DNA from: Clostridia bacterium
Lineage (GTDB): Bacteria > Bacillota > Clostridia > Christensenellales > QALW01
Assembly: GCA_045600145.1 (NCBI GenBank)
Contig: JAZRXI010000008.1
Coordinates: forward strand, 433-64,432
DNA: 64,000 nucleotides
Direction of reading: 5' to 3'
The position numbers and the translations under genes were made by a program. The notes beneath the pieces are model-generated. The model did not search any database, had not been told where the DNA came from, and worked only from the letters and a program-made list of their open reading frames with translations. Numbering within the stretch: position 1 is the first letter of the stretch; each line of letters begins with the position of its first letter. This document shows positions 2 through 58,613 of the stretch, piece by piece.

Positions 2-160
2 GGTGATAAAAAAGTAAAAAGCCTGCAAATAGATTTTCGCAAGGAAATAATGGCGGATTCCGATGTGTCGGCGGCGTTCACCCAAAAAGAAAATGTAACG
101 CTGATAGAGGGCATATGCGGCGGTGAGCTTATGTTTCTTGCAAGTGTGGAGGAGGAATAA
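2..160 (+). CDS. C-terminal end of an unidentified protein (CDS starts upstream of window)
   Basis: Frame open from window edge to TAA 158-160 (...ICGGELMFLASVEEE*); no family recognised. Confidence 0.35.
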   Translation, partial: GDKKVKSLQIDFRKEIMADSDVSAAFTQKENVTLIEGICGGELMFLASVEEE

Positions 161-162
161 AG

Positions 163-18379: not shown

Positions 18380-18538
18380 TGGGACTTTGGAGTTGCGCTT
18401 AGTGGAAATGCTGTTCAGTGCCCCTTCTTGTAAGCTTTTTTGAACAAAAGCTTGACTAAAGACTTTTATTGCACTTTATGCAGAATAAAAAAGTACAGTG
18501 CCTTATGCTAAAATACAGCTCAGGCACTGTACTTTTTT
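18380..18538 (+). repeat. 3'-UTR-associated modular repeat, copy R3
   Basis: GGGACTTTGGAG.., AGCTTTTTTGAACAAAAGCT (18433-18452), AAAGACTTTTATTGCAC, GTACAGTGCCT-N18-AGGCACTGTAC+T6 (18493-18538). Confidence 0.65.
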
Positions 18539-23576: not shown

Positions 23577-23733
23577 TTGGACTCCATCCACACTCATATG
23601 CAGGGGATACAGTCCTTTGACTCCACCCGCTTTCTTGAAAAAACGGGACAAAAAACTTTCGTGACTTTATGAAAAATTCTTCCACCGTAAGTAGGGCGGG
23701 AGAATTTTTTTGCAAAAGTATGTGAAAGAAACA
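23577..23733 (+). repeat. 3'-UTR-associated modular repeat, copy R4 (ATTCTCCCG-hairpin subfamily)
   Basis: Aligns with R1: CCCGCTTTCTTGAAAAAACGGG, AAAAAACTTTCGTGAC, ATTCTTCCACC-N7-GGGCGGGAGAAT+T7. Confidence 0.6.
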
Positions 23734-37944: not shown

Positions 37945-38090
37945 GGGGAGATGTCGGAGCTTCGTTTCGTTGTGAATTGACCCTGCCACTCGCTTTTGTA
38001 AAAGCGCGCCAAAACTTTTATTGCGCTTTTCACAGAAAAAAATAATACAGTGCCTTATGCTAAAGTATAGTGTAGGCACTGTATTTTTTT
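37945..38090 (+). repeat. 3'-UTR-associated modular repeat, copy R7 (best exemplar)
   Basis: CGCTTTTGTAAAAGCG (37991-38006), AAAACTTTTATTGCGC (38011-38026), ATACAGTGCCT-N18-AGGCACTGTAT+T7 (38046-38090). Confidence 0.7.
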
Positions 38091-53795: not shown

Positions 53796-55373
53796 ATGAA
53801 AACACCGCTGTGTTTGGAAGACCTGTCGGTCGAGCAGAAAATCGGTCAGTTGTTGACCGCGCGTCAACTGCCCGAGCCGGACGAATTGTCCTTTGCGATA
53901 GAGCTTGCGAAAAACCACGCGCTCGGCGCGATTCAGGTCCCCACTACCCGCGAAGCCATGACCACGTTGGGCGATCGCGTCAAGGATGCCGCCGATTACC
54001 CGATACTTGTCGGTGCCGATATGGAAAAAGGCTGTCCGATGGGCTCGCTTAAAATCGCAGGCAATCTTGCGCTTGGTGCCATGGATGACCCCGAGTGTGC
54101 ATATCGCTTTGCACGTGTGACCGCGATAGAAGCCAAGGAAGCAGGCTACAACATGATCTGGAGCCCCGTTGTTGACAACGCTGACCATGACCATCCATGT
54201 TCGATTGCCCGCTCGTTCGGGTCAAATCCACGAAAAATCGCGGAGCTTGCCATTCCATATATGCGCGCCTTCGCGGAATGCGGTGTCATCGGCTCGGCCA
54301 AGCACTATCCGTCCGCAAACGATTCCATTTTTGACACTCACATGGCGGAAGGGTTTTCCTATAGAACTAAAGAACAGCTTCTTTCGTACAATCTCGTACC
54401 GTACATAGAAATGATGAAAGCGCTCGGTGACGATATGCCCGGCATCATGACGGGTCATGTCAAGTGCGTAAATATCGATCCCGAACATCCTGCAAGCCTT
54501 TCAAAACCCTGCATCGACATCATCCGTGAGGCAGGCTTCGACGGCATTATAATCACCGATTCACTTGCCATGATGGGCGTTGTTCAGAAATACGGTGACT
54601 ATCTGCCGCTTGCACTTGCCATAGCTGCCGGTAACGACCTGCTGTTACCAAATTACCGCATGCCACTGAGAGCCGGTTATGAATATCTTCTCAAAGCATA
54701 CCGTGACGGCGCTTTCTCCGAGGAACGGCTGAATGATGCCGTCCGTCATGTACTGAACGCGCAGGCGCGCACACTGCGCATGCCGGATGGCACTGTAACA
54801 GATGAAGACCGCGCCTATATAGAAAAAATCAACCGCAACTGCATCTGTGCAAAATGCGATGAGGGTCTTTCTCCCGTACTTAACAAGGATAGAAAGCATC
54901 TGTTCGTCATACTGCGTGAAAACCCGGTGCTTGATGCTGACAACGGAGAGATCAACGAAATATCTTTTTCCGGCTGGTGGAATCCCGATGAAGTCGCCGC
55001 TCATCTGAAACACGACTTTCCCGCCTCCGAGGTGCGCCTGCTCTGCGAGTTCCCGACATATATCGAAAACGAGCGTGTCGCCAATCTCGCCGCACACGCA
55101 GATGATGTGGTTTTCGTGACCTTCTGCGAGGGTCGCTGTTATCAGGGCACTGACGGTTTGACTGAGCGCATGCGTATGCTGATCGCATCCATGCAGACCA
55201 AAATCGCAGCCATTGTACATTTCGGAAATCCCTACGCCATGCAGCCCGTTGTTCATATACCGCGTTTGATTTTCGGTTTTCCGAGCGAACTGTGTGTTAA
55301 TAACGGACTGGATGTGCTTTCCGGCAAGATCGAGCCTCTCGGGCATCTGCCGATCGACGTAAAGCTTAAATAG
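53796..55373 (+). CDS. glycoside hydrolase family 3 protein (NagZ/beta-glucosidase-like)
   Basis: EQKIGQLL, KHYPS, IIITDSLAM (nucleophile Asp region). Confidence 0.75.
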   Translation: MKTPLCLEDLSVEQKIGQLLTARQLPEPDELSFAIELAKNHALGAIQVPTTREAMTTLGDRVKDAADYPILVGADMEKGCPMGSLKIAGNLALGAMDDPECAYRFARVTAIEAKEAGYNMIWSPVVDNADHDHPCSIARSFGSNPRKIAELAIPYMRAFAECGVIGSAKHYPSANDSIFDTHMAEGFSYRTKEQLLSYNLVPYIEMMKALGDDMPGIMTGHVKCVNIDPEHPASLSKPCIDIIREAGFDGIIITDSLAMMGVVQKYGDYLPLALAIAAGNDLLLPNYRMPLRAGYEYLLKAYRDGAFSEERLNDAVRHVLNAQARTLRMPDGTVTDEDRAYIEKINRNCICAKCDEGLSPVLNKDRKHLFVILRENPVLDADNGEINEISFSGWWNPDEVAAHLKHDFPASEVRLLCEFPTYIENERVANLAAHADDVVFVTFCEGRCYQGTDGLTERMRMLIASMQTKIAAIVHFGNPYAMQPVVHIPRLIFGFPSELCVNNGLDVLSGKIEPLGHLPIDVKLK

Positions 55374-55488
55374 CGAATTTGTATTTTAATATAAAGTAAT
55401 TTGAGTATAAAAGTTTTCTGAGAACACGAACTCGGATTTGTAAAGATATTTTCCATTGCCGTGCGACGATGCGTAATACACATAATAG

Positions 55489-55521
55489 AAAAACAGGCTG
55501 ACATAAAACCAGCCTGTTTTT
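55489..55521 (+). terminator. intrinsic terminator
   Basis: AAACAGGCTG-N9-CAGCCTGTTT then TT. Confidence 0.7.
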
Positions 55522-55542
55522 CTATTGGTGCCTTTAGGTGTG

Positions 55543-55572
55543 GAGAAAAAGCCCCCCCGGTTCTACCGGGGG
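55543..55572 (-). terminator. intrinsic terminator abutting the truncated aldolase
   Basis: Minus-sense CCCCCGG-TAGAA-CCGGGGG then GGCTTTTTCTCC. Confidence 0.55.
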
Positions 55573-55575
55573 AAA

Positions 55576-56149
55576 GAAAATCAAGGTCCGGAATTCCCTT
55601 ATACTCACCGTGAGCAGTTCCTATTGCTATAGCTAAAGTATCAATACCTGTTTTGCTTACAAAATCTTCGGCTTCTTTCGGAACAGTAAATGTTACCGTT
55701 CTCTCATCCACCGACATATCATCTTCCGTTCCGCCTATTCTTCCGAGTTCTCCCTCAACACAAACATTTATGCTATGTGCCGCTTCAACAACTTTTTTTA
55801 CCATTTTTACATTTTCTTCATAAGGCAAATCGGCAGAATCAATCATTACAGATGTATAGCCGGATTTCATACATTGCATAATTGTTTCAAAGCTCTTACA
55901 GTGGTCAACATGAAGCGCCATAGGTATCTTGTATTCTTTCGAGGCTTCTTTTACTATTGAAGCTATGCAAGGAATACCTGCGTGCTTAAGAGTGCCCGGA
56001 GTGGTTTGGATTATTACCGGACAGTTTTCCTCTTTTGCCCCTTGAGCAACCGCTTGTATGGTTTCTAAATTATGAATATTAAATGTTGCGATTGCACAGC
56101 CTTTCTTCTGTGCCTCTTTAATAAAACACAATGGATTTACTAATGACAT
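55576..56149 (-). pseudogene. class II tagatose/fructose-bisphosphate aldolase, 3'-truncated (about 191 of 285 codons)
   Basis: MSLVNP..ATFNIHNLE..ALHVDHC..EGELGRIGG..GTAHGEYKG; homology stops after IPDLDF and runs into unrelated sequence. Confidence 0.75.
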
Positions 56150-56163
56150 TTTTTCCACCTCGC

Positions 56164-56598
56164 TTAAATCATTTCTGTTTTTATTTCAAAATAGTATTTA
56201 TCTACCGTGTTTTTATCCACTGATCCTGTTTGCGCATACAAAGCATTTGTTAATCCGGCAGCCATACCATACTTTATCGAATCAATTACATTCATATTTT
56301 CTGATAGCGCCACGGCAATTGCCGCAACCGTACTGTCACCTGAACCGACAGAATTCACTGCCGTTATCTCCGGCGTTACAAAATGATAGTATTTGTCCTC
56401 AAATAACAATATTGCCCCCTGCGAACCCAATGTGCATAAAGGAACTTTAACTCCCGAATCTTACAAATCTCTCAATGCTTTTTTGATATTATCAAAGCTG
56501 TCCGTTGAATACCCGAAAAGCTCTTTTAACTCTTGTCTGTTCGGCTTTATCATATACGGTCTTGATTCCAATGCTTTTTTTAATACTGCCCCCGAAGT
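56164..56598 (-). pseudogene. PfkB-family sugar-phosphate kinase (LacC/FruK-like), C-terminal half with in-frame TAA
   Basis: TSGAVLKKALESRPYMIKPNRQEL..RDL*DSGVKV..VNSVGSGDS; TAA at 56482-56484; the N-terminal ~160 codons are absent. Confidence 0.75.
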
Positions 56599-56886
56599 AT
56601 AAAAGAGTTAAGCAGAAGAATTTGTTCAAGCGAATCTTCCGTCCGCAGAGACCTTGAATATCTGGAAAATGCGGGTTTATCAAAAAAAGTCTACGGCGGT
56701 GCCGTTCTTGCTGAATACGAAAACGACCTTGTTCCCGTTTTTCTGCGTGATTCTTCAAATTCAGCCATAAAAGAAAAAATCGCCCAAAGGGCTTCAAAAG
56801 AAGTTTTTGACGGTGCTGTTATTTTTATGGATTCATCATCCACTGTTATGAGAATAACCAAGTATTTATCATCCTATAAAAACTTA
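56599..56886 (+). pseudogene. DeoR-family regulator fragment (truncated at both ends)
   Basis: IKELSRRICSSESSVRRDLEYLENAGLSKKVYGGAVL..IAQRASKEVFDGAVIFMDSSST..; lacks about 20 N-terminal and 120 C-terminal codons. Confidence 0.7.
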
Positions 56887-56902
56887 AGGCAATACCGCAT
56901 AA

Positions 56903-57022
56903 TTATGACGGTGCAGATGCGCCGTCAGAATAAGTGTCTAAGGTAATCATCCCCAAGCTCGTCATATAATCAATGATGATATAGTCATAATCCTTTTTGA
57001 TGCTTTTCAAATACATCGACAT
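56903..57022 (-). pseudogene. possible ParA/MinD-type ATPase fragment
   Basis: 39-codon ORF with KKDYDYIIIDYMTSLGMITLD resembling the ParA Walker-B region (DxxIIDcpPsLg). Confidence 0.3.
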
Positions 57023-57090
57023 AATGCCTTTCACGGTTCATCGCGAAATTTCGCCCCGAGATCCATTTTGAAAATTCCCCGTAAAACGGT

Positions 57091-57118
57091 AAAAACCCTT
57101 GATGTCTCAAGGGCTTTT
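57091..57118 (-). terminator. intrinsic terminator after tRNA-Leu
   Basis: Minus-sense AAAAGCCCTTGA-GACA-TCAAGGGTTTTT. Confidence 0.75.
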
Positions 57119-57671: not shown

Positions 57672-57908
57672 TTAAATTATATCACATTTTTCTTTTTCAT
57701 GCAATACATACTTCTGTTTCTGTTGCATAACGGATTTATTTATTCTCGCCGTACTTTTGGAGCAAGTCTTTTTTGCGTTCTCCAATACCTGCGGCGGAAT
57801 ATTGGGATATATACATGCTTTACATGTGCCGTTGATATCAAGCTCGATTTCTTCAAGTGTGCATTTTCGGTCTTTATGATAAATGCAAAAGTGGTTCTGA
57901 CAGTCCAT
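57672..57908 (-). CDS. small Cys-rich protein, unknown function
   Basis: GGAGGA RBS; MDCQNHFCIYHKDRKCTLEEIELDINGTCKACIY (6 Cys in 34 aa) plus a basic tail. Confidence 0.55.
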   Translation of the reverse strand: MDCQNHFCIYHKDRKCTLEEIELDINGTCKACIYPNIPPQVLENAKKTCSKSTARINKSVMQQKQKYVLHEKEKCDII

Positions 57909-57928
57909 TGATGTTTCCTCCGTAGAAT

Positions 57929-57958
57929 AAAAAAGTGCAACCACCGAAGCAGTCGCAC
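57929..57958 (-). terminator. attenuator terminator inside the 5' leader
   Basis: Minus-sense GTGCGACTGC-TTCG-GTGGTTGCAC followed by T6, ending 8 nt before the RBS. Confidence 0.7.
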
Positions 57959-57981
57959 AAAAAACGCAAACTCCGATAGTC

Positions 57982-58119
57982 GCCAAACCAATTCAATATA
58001 AGGGCATTACGCTCACTTACACCGAAGGAATTTGCATTTTTATCAAATTCGAGGTGCAAACAATAAGCGTATTGTCCGAATAGGGGGAAAATACCCGTTT
58101 GATATCAAATTGGCTTGGC
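57982..58119 (-). promoter_or_regulatory. candidate riboswitch aptamer-like domain (class not recognised)
   Basis: P1 GCCAAGCCAATT/AATTGGTTTGGC (58108-58119 with 57982-57993). P2 GGGTATT/AATGCCC (58090-58096 with 58002-58008). P3 hairpin 58060-58075. P4 hairpin 58018-58058. All are nested. Confidence 0.55.
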
Positions 58120-58125
58120 ACAATC

Positions 58126-58154
58126 ATTGTAGCACATTTGTCTGTTTTTATCAA
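58126..58154 (-). promoter_or_regulatory. sigma-A promoter with extended -10
   Basis: Minus-sense TTGATA (58149-58154), 17 nt, TGcTACAAT (-10 at 58126-58131); the predicted TSS coincides with the first base of P1. Confidence 0.6.
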
Positions 58155-58172
58155 GAATTAAATTTATATATT

Positions 58173-58613
58173 TTACAAATACTGCCGAATATCTACGGTA
58201 AGCTGTTCTTCAAGGTTTATCAGCCGCTTTGTTATATCCTTGGAGCGTTCGTCGGCGGCTTCGTACTGATTCAGGTATTTGTTCAACGATTTGACACCCA
58301 TGTTACAGCCATCGGTCATAAGGTCGGCTATCGTTTCGTCGGTTTCGTTCATGGCAAGCTTCATGTTCGTTTTTATCCATGACATACTTTTTGCCATCGG
58401 ATCGGGATTTTTTCCGTCATCGTGAAATTCGTCAAGCATTTTTTGTGATTCGCTTTTCAGCTTTTCGTGCTCCTGCTTGCAGTAAGAGAGTTTATCCCTA
58501 AAATCTTTGTTTTCAACATGGTCGATGACTTCCTCTATCGACGAAACCCCCATTTTGATGCCCGCGTCACATTCACGCAGAAGCTTTATTGTATCGCTTT
58601 CTATCATAATCAA
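58173..58613 (-). CDS. hypothetical all-helical protein (four-helix-bundle-like)
   Basis: 146-aa ORF, GGAGG RBS, amphipathic helical repeats; family not recognised. Confidence 0.6.
   Translation of the reverse strand: MIMIESDTIKLLRECDAGIKMGVSSIEEVIDHVENKDFRDKLSYCKQEHEKLKSESQKMLDEFHDDGKNPDPMAKSMSWIKTNMKLAMNETDETIADLMTDGCNMGVKSLNKYLNQYEAADERSKDITKRLINLEEQLTVDIRQYL

Follow-up and report, generated by a model that had tools for sequence, protein, structure and literature searches.

A candidate family of promoter-proximal attenuation leaders in gut and rumen Clostridia

Cyclic di-GMP-I (c-di-GMP-I, GEMM-I) riboswitches precede many unrelated genes, including genes for surface proteins and phage genes. 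In the CI RNA immunity of phage P4 and in the countertranscript attenuation of pT181 and pIP501, a box within a stem-loop and a second box complementary to it govern termination of the leader; in P4 the leader encodes both boxes, and nascent transcripts are the target of the processed leader RNA. The RecV-dependent cwpV switch of Clostridioides difficile consists of a promoter and of inverted repeats that bound an invertible segment of ~100-200 base pairs (bp) in the 5' leader of a surface-protein gene; the segment holds neither a promoter nor an open reading frame (ORF), and orientation-dependent intrinsic termination of the leader transcript serves as the read-out (PMC2784873). The element described here lies on the minus strand at 57929-58119 of a 64,000-nucleotide stretch of a Clostridia bacterium (contig JAZRXI010000008.1, positions 433 to 64,432; assembly GCA_045600145.1), in the following called the window. 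It shares with cwpV the promoter followed by inverted repeats around a leader segment, and with the c-di-GMP-I riboswitches a structured 5' leader composed of a multi-helix junction and a terminator as well as a place ahead of many unrelated genes.

On comparison with its homologues, the element emerges as a conserved, previously unannotated RNA of ~190-230 nucleotides (nt) which is not detected by any Rfam model. Transcription of the gene behind it probably depends on this leader. We regard it, with confidence that is about evenly balanced, as one copy of an undescribed family of promoter-proximal, cis-acting transcription-attenuation leaders. The minus strand carries every feature that an earlier note, made from the letters of the window alone, had claimed for this locus, i.e. 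the promoter, the closing helix P1, the nested helices and a UUCG-capped terminator, each at the position given there. Overlooked in that note was a complementarity of 15 bp between an apical box and the linker in front of the terminator, which is conserved and covaries and represents the key feature of the element. The parts are, in the order of transcription:

58126-58154, minus strand: sigma-A-type promoter, with -35 box TTGATA (58154-58149), 17-nt spacer and extended -10 box TGcTACAAT (58134-58126)
58102-58119, minus strand: P1 5' arm GCCAAGCCAAUUUGAUAU, also the left inverted repeat of the helix-bounded segment
58090-58096, minus strand: P1b 5' strand GGGUAUU, paired with AAUGCCC (58002-58008) in the minimum free energy (MFE) fold
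58076-58089, minus strand: junction strand J1, conserved in sequence and without a helix in alignments A3 and A4, U-rich in homologues (GUAUUUUUYUUU)
58060-58075, minus strand: hairpin A, ACAAUA-CGCU-UAUUGU, from a constrained fold
58018-58058, minus strand: P3, UGCACC/GGUGUA, strands 58058-58053 and 58023-58018, capped by hairpin B
58050-58028, minus strand: hairpin B, GAAUUUG-AUAAAAAUG-CAAAUUC, with a 9-nt loop, capping P3
58027-58041, minus strand: apical box AAAAAUGCAAAUUCC, loop and 3' strand of hairpin B, complementary to the linker
58002-58008, minus strand: P1b 3' strand AAUGCCC, partner of GGGUAUU in the MFE fold and in homologue helices
57982-57999, minus strand: P1 3' arm AUAUUGAAUUGGUUUGGC, 18 bp with 58102-58119, also the right inverted repeat
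57960-57981, minus strand: tail GACUAUC and linker GGAGUUUGCGUUUUU (57974-57960), nearly invariant across copies, the proposed switching strand
57929-57958, minus strand: intrinsic terminator GUGCGACUGC-UUCG-GUGGUUGCAC with U6, from a terminator scan; 10-bp stem 57958-57935, U6 57934-57929
57921-57916, minus strand: ribosome-binding site (RBS) GGAGGA, 7 nt past the U tract
57908-57672, minus strand: Cys-rich ORF of 78 amino acids with ATG start, directly behind the RBS

In a consensus scan the promoter matches at 10 of 12 positions, in addition to the TG of the extended -10 box, and P1 begins six bases past this box. A transcription start at the first base of P1 would be consistent with the homologues, in which the -10 box ends 5-7 nt before P1. 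The 12-bp closing helix of the earlier note can indeed be extended to 18 bp (58119-58102 with 57999-57982) and stands, together with the multi-helix junction and the terminator, ahead of the Cys-rich ORF. Terminator and GGAGGA are likewise where they had been placed, except that 7 nt and not 8 nt separate them. Directly upstream of the promoter lies a 146-amino-acid ORF (58173-58613, minus strand), which has only a weak match to DUF2383 (four-helix bundle). Since this ORF ends 18 nt before the -35 box without an intervening terminator, transcription may also read into the element from upstream.

The 202-nt RNA of the minus strand folds with -71.4 kcal/mol (z = -6.7), a value attained by none of 200 shuffles, as compared with -49.1 kcal/mol (z = -3.2) for the plus strand. 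The structure in the window exceeds chance, and a chance palindrome is ruled out; a strand-specific structured RNA behind a near-consensus promoter, as proposed before, is what the sequence holds. The G.U pairs of the aptamer, said to exist in the minus-sense RNA only, number seven as transcribed and one in the reverse complement. All 17 copies of usual orientation that were tested behave in the same way: the transcribed RNA exceeds its reverse complement in stability by 2-30 kcal/mol and contains 3-11 G.U pairs as opposed to 0-5. The MFE fold of the window is a rod, in which ACGCUUAUU is paired with AAGUGAGCGU at the expense of the small hairpin A. Because homologues carry a hairpin at the position of hairpin A, the three-way junction and not this rod is taken as the conserved architecture.

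A scan of the whole window with Rfam 15 at gathering scores found two tRNAs only and left the element unmatched. At E<=10 the region 57850-58200 gave nothing but noise, the best match reaching 17 bits against a cut-off of 60, in line with the earlier failure to recognise a riboswitch class, and at E<=1 six homologous loci gave no match at the element. Literature text searches with conserved strings returned nothing relevant, and neither did the first 200 of 408 supplementary files (human-microbiome RNA-motif catalogue). The known leader types 6S RNA, T-box, ANTAR or RAT sites and type III toxin-antitoxin loci were considered and rejected, as there is no Rfam match, no repeats and no conserved partner gene. 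Direct repeats, which characterize the type III toxin-antitoxin loci, are absent from 57929-58120, and the downstream proteins are also unrelated and do not form a single toxin family. A single-strand promoter (Frpo) was rejected as well, the -35 and -10 boxes being located outside the hairpin.

No fewer than 20 distinct copies are counted, a lower bound: the window, L007, L014, L036, L038, L039, L043, L045, L046, L047a, L047b, L048, L049, L050, L063, L065, L067, L068, L071 and L073. Among 30 metagenome loci with the Cys-rich ORF, the RNA is present at four, two of which are distinct (L007, identical to L008 and L009, and L014); at the other Cys-rich loci a divergent regulator gene of the ribbon-helix-helix (RHH) or helix-turn-helix (HTH) type takes its place. 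Some database proteins (P0005, P0020) bear N-terminal extensions which are translated RNA, and a search of the protein database with the translated frames of linker and terminator yielded 31 such read-through proteins. Their contigs, along with DNA-pattern scans of viral contigs, supplied further copies. A BLAST search of phages gave one partial match, leading to L038, whereas plasmids gave none, and nhmmer over 388 kilobases of collected sequence added no copies.

The copies share one order of elements. A promoter TRTGn-TAnAnT is followed 5-7 nt later by P1, by the junction with hairpin A and P3/hairpin B, by a nearly invariant tail and linker, GCGACUAUCGGAGUU(G)UGCGUUUUU, and by a terminator GUGCG...CUUCGG...CGCAC with a U run. 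An RBS and a same-strand ORF follow within 7-45 nt in 19/20 copies, and this ORF has no promoter of its own. Carriers are chromosomes of gut and rumen Clostridia as well as some mobile or viral contigs. The chromosomal copies sit singly among housekeeping genes (EF-Ts, FeoB, aminoacyl-tRNA synthetases, infC-rpmI-rplT, Mur ligase). L036 adjoins two large serine recombinases, located upstream. At L047 two complete copies, both equipped with a promoter and a terminator, stand in tandem (1188-1382 and 1514-1730). Outer P1, linker and terminator are identical in them, the interiors differ, and an ORF is found behind the second only.

Several surroundings are recorded here as observations in their own right. 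L038 is located near the left end of the 49-kilobase phage record MT835503.1; the element is immediately preceded by two tRNA genes (1-44 and 91-162, minus strand) and followed by the gene for a full-length EcoRI-like adenine methyltransferase (PF13651, E 1.6e-134). At L007 (2199-2858, 3184-3323) and L014 (546-2645), the RNA and the Cys-rich ORF are situated between a divergent gene for a type III glutamine synthetase and glutamate-synthase-like genes. L007 additionally shows an inserted ORF for an IS200/RAYT-like transposase upstream and, between the Cys-rich ORF and the gltB-like gene, a sub-threshold match to the Rfam family 'freshwater-2' (37 bits, E 0.015).

Covariation was counted in a 14-sequence alignment (A3), whose interior is aligned approximately. 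In the outer 14 bp of P1, 97% of the cells are paired and 8 pairs are compensatory; the 10-bp stem of the terminator is paired to 99%, with 3 compensatory pairs. If the partner columns are slid against each other, pairing drops to 30-46%, and 0/500 shuffles attain the observed covariation score. From 13 aptamers, RNAalifold predicts P1, hairpin A, P3 and hairpin B, 13 out of 31 pairs being compensatory; P3 comprises 7 bp with several compensatory pairs and hairpin B 7 bp, with compensatory changes from A-U to G-C in L046 and L049. At the position of hairpin A the homologues have a GGG-loop-CCC hairpin, which RNAalifold also predicts, and individual folds reveal counterparts of P1b that differ in sequence (GGGGCA/UGCCCU in L046, AGGUAU/AUGCCU in L048). 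Conserved unpaired parts are J1 (GUAUUUUU), the loop of hairpin A (AAUAnUAUA) and the loop of hairpin B (GAUAAAAAUG). The length of P1 varies between 14 and 30 bp, and its outer part, GCCAAA/UUUGGC, is common to loci with unrelated genes. Most conserved are the expression platform, i.e. linker and terminator, and the one apical box. The element thereby combines covarying aptamer helices and conserved junction nucleotides, as riboswitches do, with a G+C-rich hairpin and U tract that show the compensatory changes of an intrinsic terminator. Conservation and covariation across the 20 copies bear out the nested helices read from the window alone, which are essentially right; they are RNA helices and not merely DNA repeats.

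A passive reading, according to which the element is a palindromic, non-functional repeat of the type of a miniature inverted-repeat transposable element that is only incidentally transcribed, is disfavoured and very improbable. It would account for the copy number, for terminal inverted repeats in the form of P1, for intergenic positions in chromosomes and mobile elements, and for many carrier contigs being short or ending at the element. However, the conserved unit exceeds the repeats, reaching the promoter on one side and the linker and terminator on the other. The G.U bias is strand-specific, the orientation relative to the downstream ORF is constant, and compensatory changes occur both in the internal helices and in the pairing of apical box and linker.

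This latter pairing connects the linker GGAGUUUGCGUUUUU (57974-57960) to the apical box AAAAAUGCAAAUUCC (58041-58027) in 15/15 positions, two of them G.U. In the window alone, a complementary run of >=15 is found in 11/5000 shuffles. Over 14 sequences, pairing in the apical-linker helix amounts to 95%; at eight pairs variation is confined to one strand, with pairing preserved in almost all copies. L046 (U-A to C-G) and L071 (A-U to G-C) have changed both partners of a pair in a compensatory manner, and 14-16 bp of the complementarity are kept in 19/20 copies. Within hairpin B the apical box, as loop and 3' strand, faces a 5' strand that covaries with this 3' strand in L046 and L049 and, in L007 and L014, mimics the linker over nearly its full length. 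Since hairpin B 5' strand and linker covary with the same 3' strand, both pairings are mutually exclusive. The apical-linker duplex is calculated at -16 to -22 kcal/mol (-11.5 in the variant of L065), compared with -2 to -7 kcal/mol for hairpin B.

An alternative partner for the same strand lies downstream. Tail and linker (GCGACUAUCGGAG), from G57983 on, can pair with the loop and 3' half of the terminator (CUUCGGUGGUUGC), and this linker-terminator helix is the MFE structure of the 3' module in 12/14 copies (-18 to -27 kcal/mol, as against -14 to -18 kcal/mol for the terminator alone). The result is a mutually exclusive chain that resembles trp-type attenuators: hairpin B 5' strand with apical box, apical box with linker, linker with the terminator 3' half, and the terminator halves with each other. 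In contrast to trp-type attenuators, the element has no leader peptide, the first pairing is located inside a large conserved three-way junction, and the last alternative lacks covariation.

In the mechanism proposed on these grounds, the strong sigma-A promoter would start an RNA whose first ~140 nt form the long closing helix around a three-way junction of hairpin A and the hairpin-B-capped P3, followed by the 22-nt tail and linker, the terminator and one gene. By default, transcription would halt at the terminator and release an RNA of ~190 nt. A linker that pairs over 15 bp with the apical box, expelling the hairpin B 5' strand, would leave the terminator free to form; one that pairs with the loop and 3' half of the terminator would disrupt the canonical hairpin and result in read-through. 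The state of the folded domain would set termination through the availability of the apical box. We favour as trigger a factor of general occurrence in the cell, be it a small molecule, a protein or an RNA, that would act on the junction; the range of genes, the length of P1 and the pattern of conservation make a pathway-specific metabolite unlikely. The promoter, the covarying helices, the apical-linker complementarity with its compensatory changes, the absence from Rfam and the diversity of the downstream genes are established computationally.

Several points weigh against this reading. The linker-terminator alternative shows no covariation: its linker side is invariant, and variation in the terminator sometimes breaks the middle of the helix. 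Moreover, this helix ends 2 nt before the U tract, and may itself terminate transcription. The pairing between apical box and linker crosses P1 and therefore has to be a pseudoknot or intermolecular. A cofold test of the favoured state was mixed, with the duplex plus terminator favoured in 7/20 copies. The transcription start, termination, read-through and the assignment of ON and OFF are what we infer from the sequence. Finally, L047a, which has no ORF behind it, fits a stand-alone RNA, and the inverted copy L036 fits a DNA switch.

The genes behind the element are mutually unrelated. Their products comprise Cys-rich DUF1540-like, zinc-ribbon and DZR proteins, lipoproteins, SHOCT, bPH_2, LRR_5 and WG-repeat proteins, three EcoRI-like adenine methylases, three PlsC-like acyltransferases, a GNAT protein, an HTH_3 regulator and many orphans; approximately 2/3 of the proteins have a transmembrane segment, signal peptide or lipobox. 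No one pathway, transporter or signal unites them. This composition bears on whether the element is a classical riboswitch, in which the junction binds a small molecule that controls the terminator. Conserved junction strands and loops, covarying helices, and a terminator directly behind would suit such a switch, as would the presence of copies on viral or mobile contigs and chromosomes alike, since c-di-GMP-I riboswitches are distributed in the same manner. The ligand would then have to be a global signal, like the cyclic dinucleotides. However, no Rfam class matches, and the incoherent gene set points to no ligand. P1, with 14-30 bp, is stable without a ligand, and the partner of the strand adjoining the terminator is the apical hairpin, not a strand of P1. 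In addition, conservation is higher in the expression platform than inside the aptamer, the reverse of known classes, and two strains may have very different aptamer interiors at one and the same locus. Altogether a riboswitch is unlikely. Accordingly the element departs from GEMM-I by its missing match to any Rfam riboswitch, its very long P1, its expression platform as the most conserved part and a switching strand that pairs with the apical hairpin and not with the P1 3' strand. The interpretation as a transcriptional OFF riboswitch in the earlier note is not upheld for the same reasons: downstream genes are unrelated, P1 is too stable at 14-30 bp for gating by a ligand, conservation is concentrated in the expression platform and apical box and marks no ligand pocket, and no pairing exists between the P1 3' strand and the terminator 5' half.

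Both boxes might also act between molecules. The terminated RNA of ~190 nt would then be a functional, trans-acting stand-alone small RNA, whose apical box pairs with the linkers of other copies, or the reverse; the boxes would couple many loci or form dimers, and the ORF would be expressed by leakage only. In favour of this, the first of the tandem copies at L047 has no ORF, and both boxes are nearly invariant across divergent copies, as expected for mutual recognition and unnecessary for pure cis pairing. Pairing across P1 is topologically easier between molecules, and the promoter is close to consensus. However, 19/20 copies have an RBS and a same-strand ORF within 7-45 nt. L046 and L071 have changed both boxes together, and thus pairing within one locus is indicated. 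We rate the proposal of a small RNA as rather improbable.

Slightly less probable still, and based on analogy with P4 CI, is a self-recognising RNA network in which terminated leaders would pair in trans with the nascent transcripts of every other copy. If it existed, dozens of accessory, mostly surface, genes and the genes of incoming phages would be gated by the pool of leader RNA, and DNA inversion could remove single loci from the network. The element differs from P4, pT181 and pIP501 in that it has no antisense promoter and is not known to be processed, its boxes flank a long closing helix, and it is dispersed before many chromosomal genes instead of serving the replication or immunity of one replicon.

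One copy deviates from the common orientation. In L036 (3654-3857) the whole P1-bounded segment is reverse-complemented, whereas promoter, linker and terminator keep the usual orientation. Its interior aligns to all other copies with scores of 45-85 as reverse complement versus 21-38 in forward direction, and all pairs of copies without L036 align better forward. As transcribed, the L036 RNA is less stable than its reverse complement (-44.0 vs -55.7 kcal/mol), the opposite of the other copies, and its P1 has an A.C mismatch at the position of a G.U pair of the window. An assembly artefact is unlikely, since the arms share no perfect run of >9 nt (by eye). The same locus was found in another metagenome: L073 (1-182) is identical to L036 in 821/857 positions (96%), covering linker, terminator and downstream genes, but has the usual orientation. 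Hairpin B of L073 is identical in 25/25 positions to the reverse complement of that of L036, whereas inner P1 arms, P3 and hairpin A differ. With the inner P1 arms and the interior beyond hairpin B differing in this way, L036 and L073 are not related by a simple flip of one allele; the segment is far less alike in the two than the flanks are, which suggests that it has been exchanged or evolves faster than its surroundings. Among viral contigs, a second copy of the L036 locus was not found.

The inverted copy suggests that the element might be a phase-variable leader of the cwpV type, a possibility we hold tentatively and well below attenuation in cis. The P1 arms would be inverted repeats, flipped by a site-specific recombinase acting in trans; a flip would remove the apical box, alter the behaviour of the fixed terminator and switch the gene ON or OFF in a subpopulation. 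The P1 arms do form inverted repeats around a segment between promoter and ORF, and the overall layout is that of cwpV (PMC2784873). In L036 the segment is reversed and the flanks are not, L073 offers the same locus in usual orientation, and the L036 RNA, less stable as transcribed, carries the A.C mismatch in P1. The outer P1 sequence GCCAAA/UUUGGC is common to loci with unrelated genes, as expected of a shared recombinase site. Membrane and secreted proteins and methyltransferases are typical phase-variable cargo, and about 2/3 of the genes behind the element encode membrane, secreted or lipoproteins, and methyltransferases are present as well.

Against inversion stands that 1/20 distinct copies is inverted, that 5 other loci sampled 2-5 times each show a single orientation, and that the L036 and L073 interiors rule out a simple allele flip. 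In the common orientation, G.U pairs are far more frequent than A.C in P1 and P3, which argues that the RNA helices themselves are under selection, something not needed for inverted repeats. Only 6 nt separate the flipped mismatch from the outer repeat end, a distance into which, judged by tyrosine and serine invertases, a recombinase site with its crossover inside would hardly fit. Neither the neighbourhood of the chromosomal copies nor the 20 window ORFs tested yielded a recombinase, and the large serine recombinases of the type beside L036 usually act as integrases. The full 15-nt box complementary to the linker is present in the common orientation only, and a cofold comparison of both orientations for terminator formation gave mixed results. 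The element also differs from cwpV in its construction. The terminator of cwpV arises at the junction of repeat and segment in one orientation; here linker and terminator are constant and located outside the repeats, and the segment supplies the 15-nt box complementary to the linker. Furthermore, the segment codes for an RNA whose fold covaries and is strand-specific, a single inversion was observed, and a recombinase gene is missing beside the chromosomal copies.

Gut and rumen Clostridia are poorly covered by current RNA annotation, and the element stands between a strong promoter and genes mostly for membrane, secreted or DNA-modifying proteins. If it gates termination as proposed, these genes would constitute a regulon of accessory and surface functions in abundant commensals, and an apical hairpin capturing the linker across a long closing helix would be a new switch design. 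If the helix arms are also sites of inversion, the copies would represent a dispersed, cwpV-like family of phase switches with a read-out at the RNA level.

At the window locus, the Cys-rich ORF is the only gene plausibly controlled by the element. Its N-terminal ~50 amino acids were found in 190 cluster representatives, small proteins of ~55-65 amino acids, by a full HMMER search (E<=1e-3); a word-based search for homologues had returned nothing. The N-terminal part follows the pattern MxCxNxFCIYxxxxxCxLxxIxLDIxGxCxxCIY, with 4-5 Cys conserved in the family, and shows a weak match to DUF1540; neither PHROG nor NCBIfam gave a match, and the cargo of L036 likewise belongs to no PHROGs family. 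Exact look-ups of the window proteins gave no record. Conservation of this kind marks the ORF behind the terminator as a real gene. Its C-terminal tail is unconserved and overlaps a second promoter:

57704-57676, minus strand: GtrA promoter TTGCAT-17-TGaTATAAT with extended -10 box, within the 3' end of the Cys-rich ORF

Five related loci were retrieved in a synteny search via GtrA. The closest relative found, L001 (GtrA 88% identical), has conserved the GtrA promoter, GtrA and the abutting tRNA-Leu(TAG), yet is devoid of the RNA and the Cys-rich ORF and has a helicase gene upstream instead. GtrA and tRNA-Leu are therefore placed outside the unit, into which the earlier note had combined them with the Cys-rich ORF, and the element was rejected as a leader of GtrA.

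The remaining window is ordinary chromosome of a spore-forming, Clostridium-like organism with dockerin proteins, in which no recombinase or phage genes were seen. Elsewhere, the loci of the Cys-rich family (L006, L010-L035) mostly have the gene beside a divergently transcribed gene for an RHH/HTH-type regulator, separated by a short intergenic region, a layout that looks like the arrangement in mobile elements or switch regions. Downstream of tRNA-Leu, the ORFs at 55253-57100 look fragmented (by eye only): an 88-amino-acid ORF looks like the C-terminal portion of a PfkB-type sugar kinase, and in a 301-amino-acid ORF an aldolase-like N-terminal part is continued by unrelated sequence. Pseudogenes or frameshifts may account for this. 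The window also contains two pairs of intergenic direct repeats of ~80 nt with 82-83% identity (925-1008 / 23626-23709 and 18459-18538 / 38011-38090), each of which ends with a hairpin and a T run and looks like a conserved terminator-containing module.

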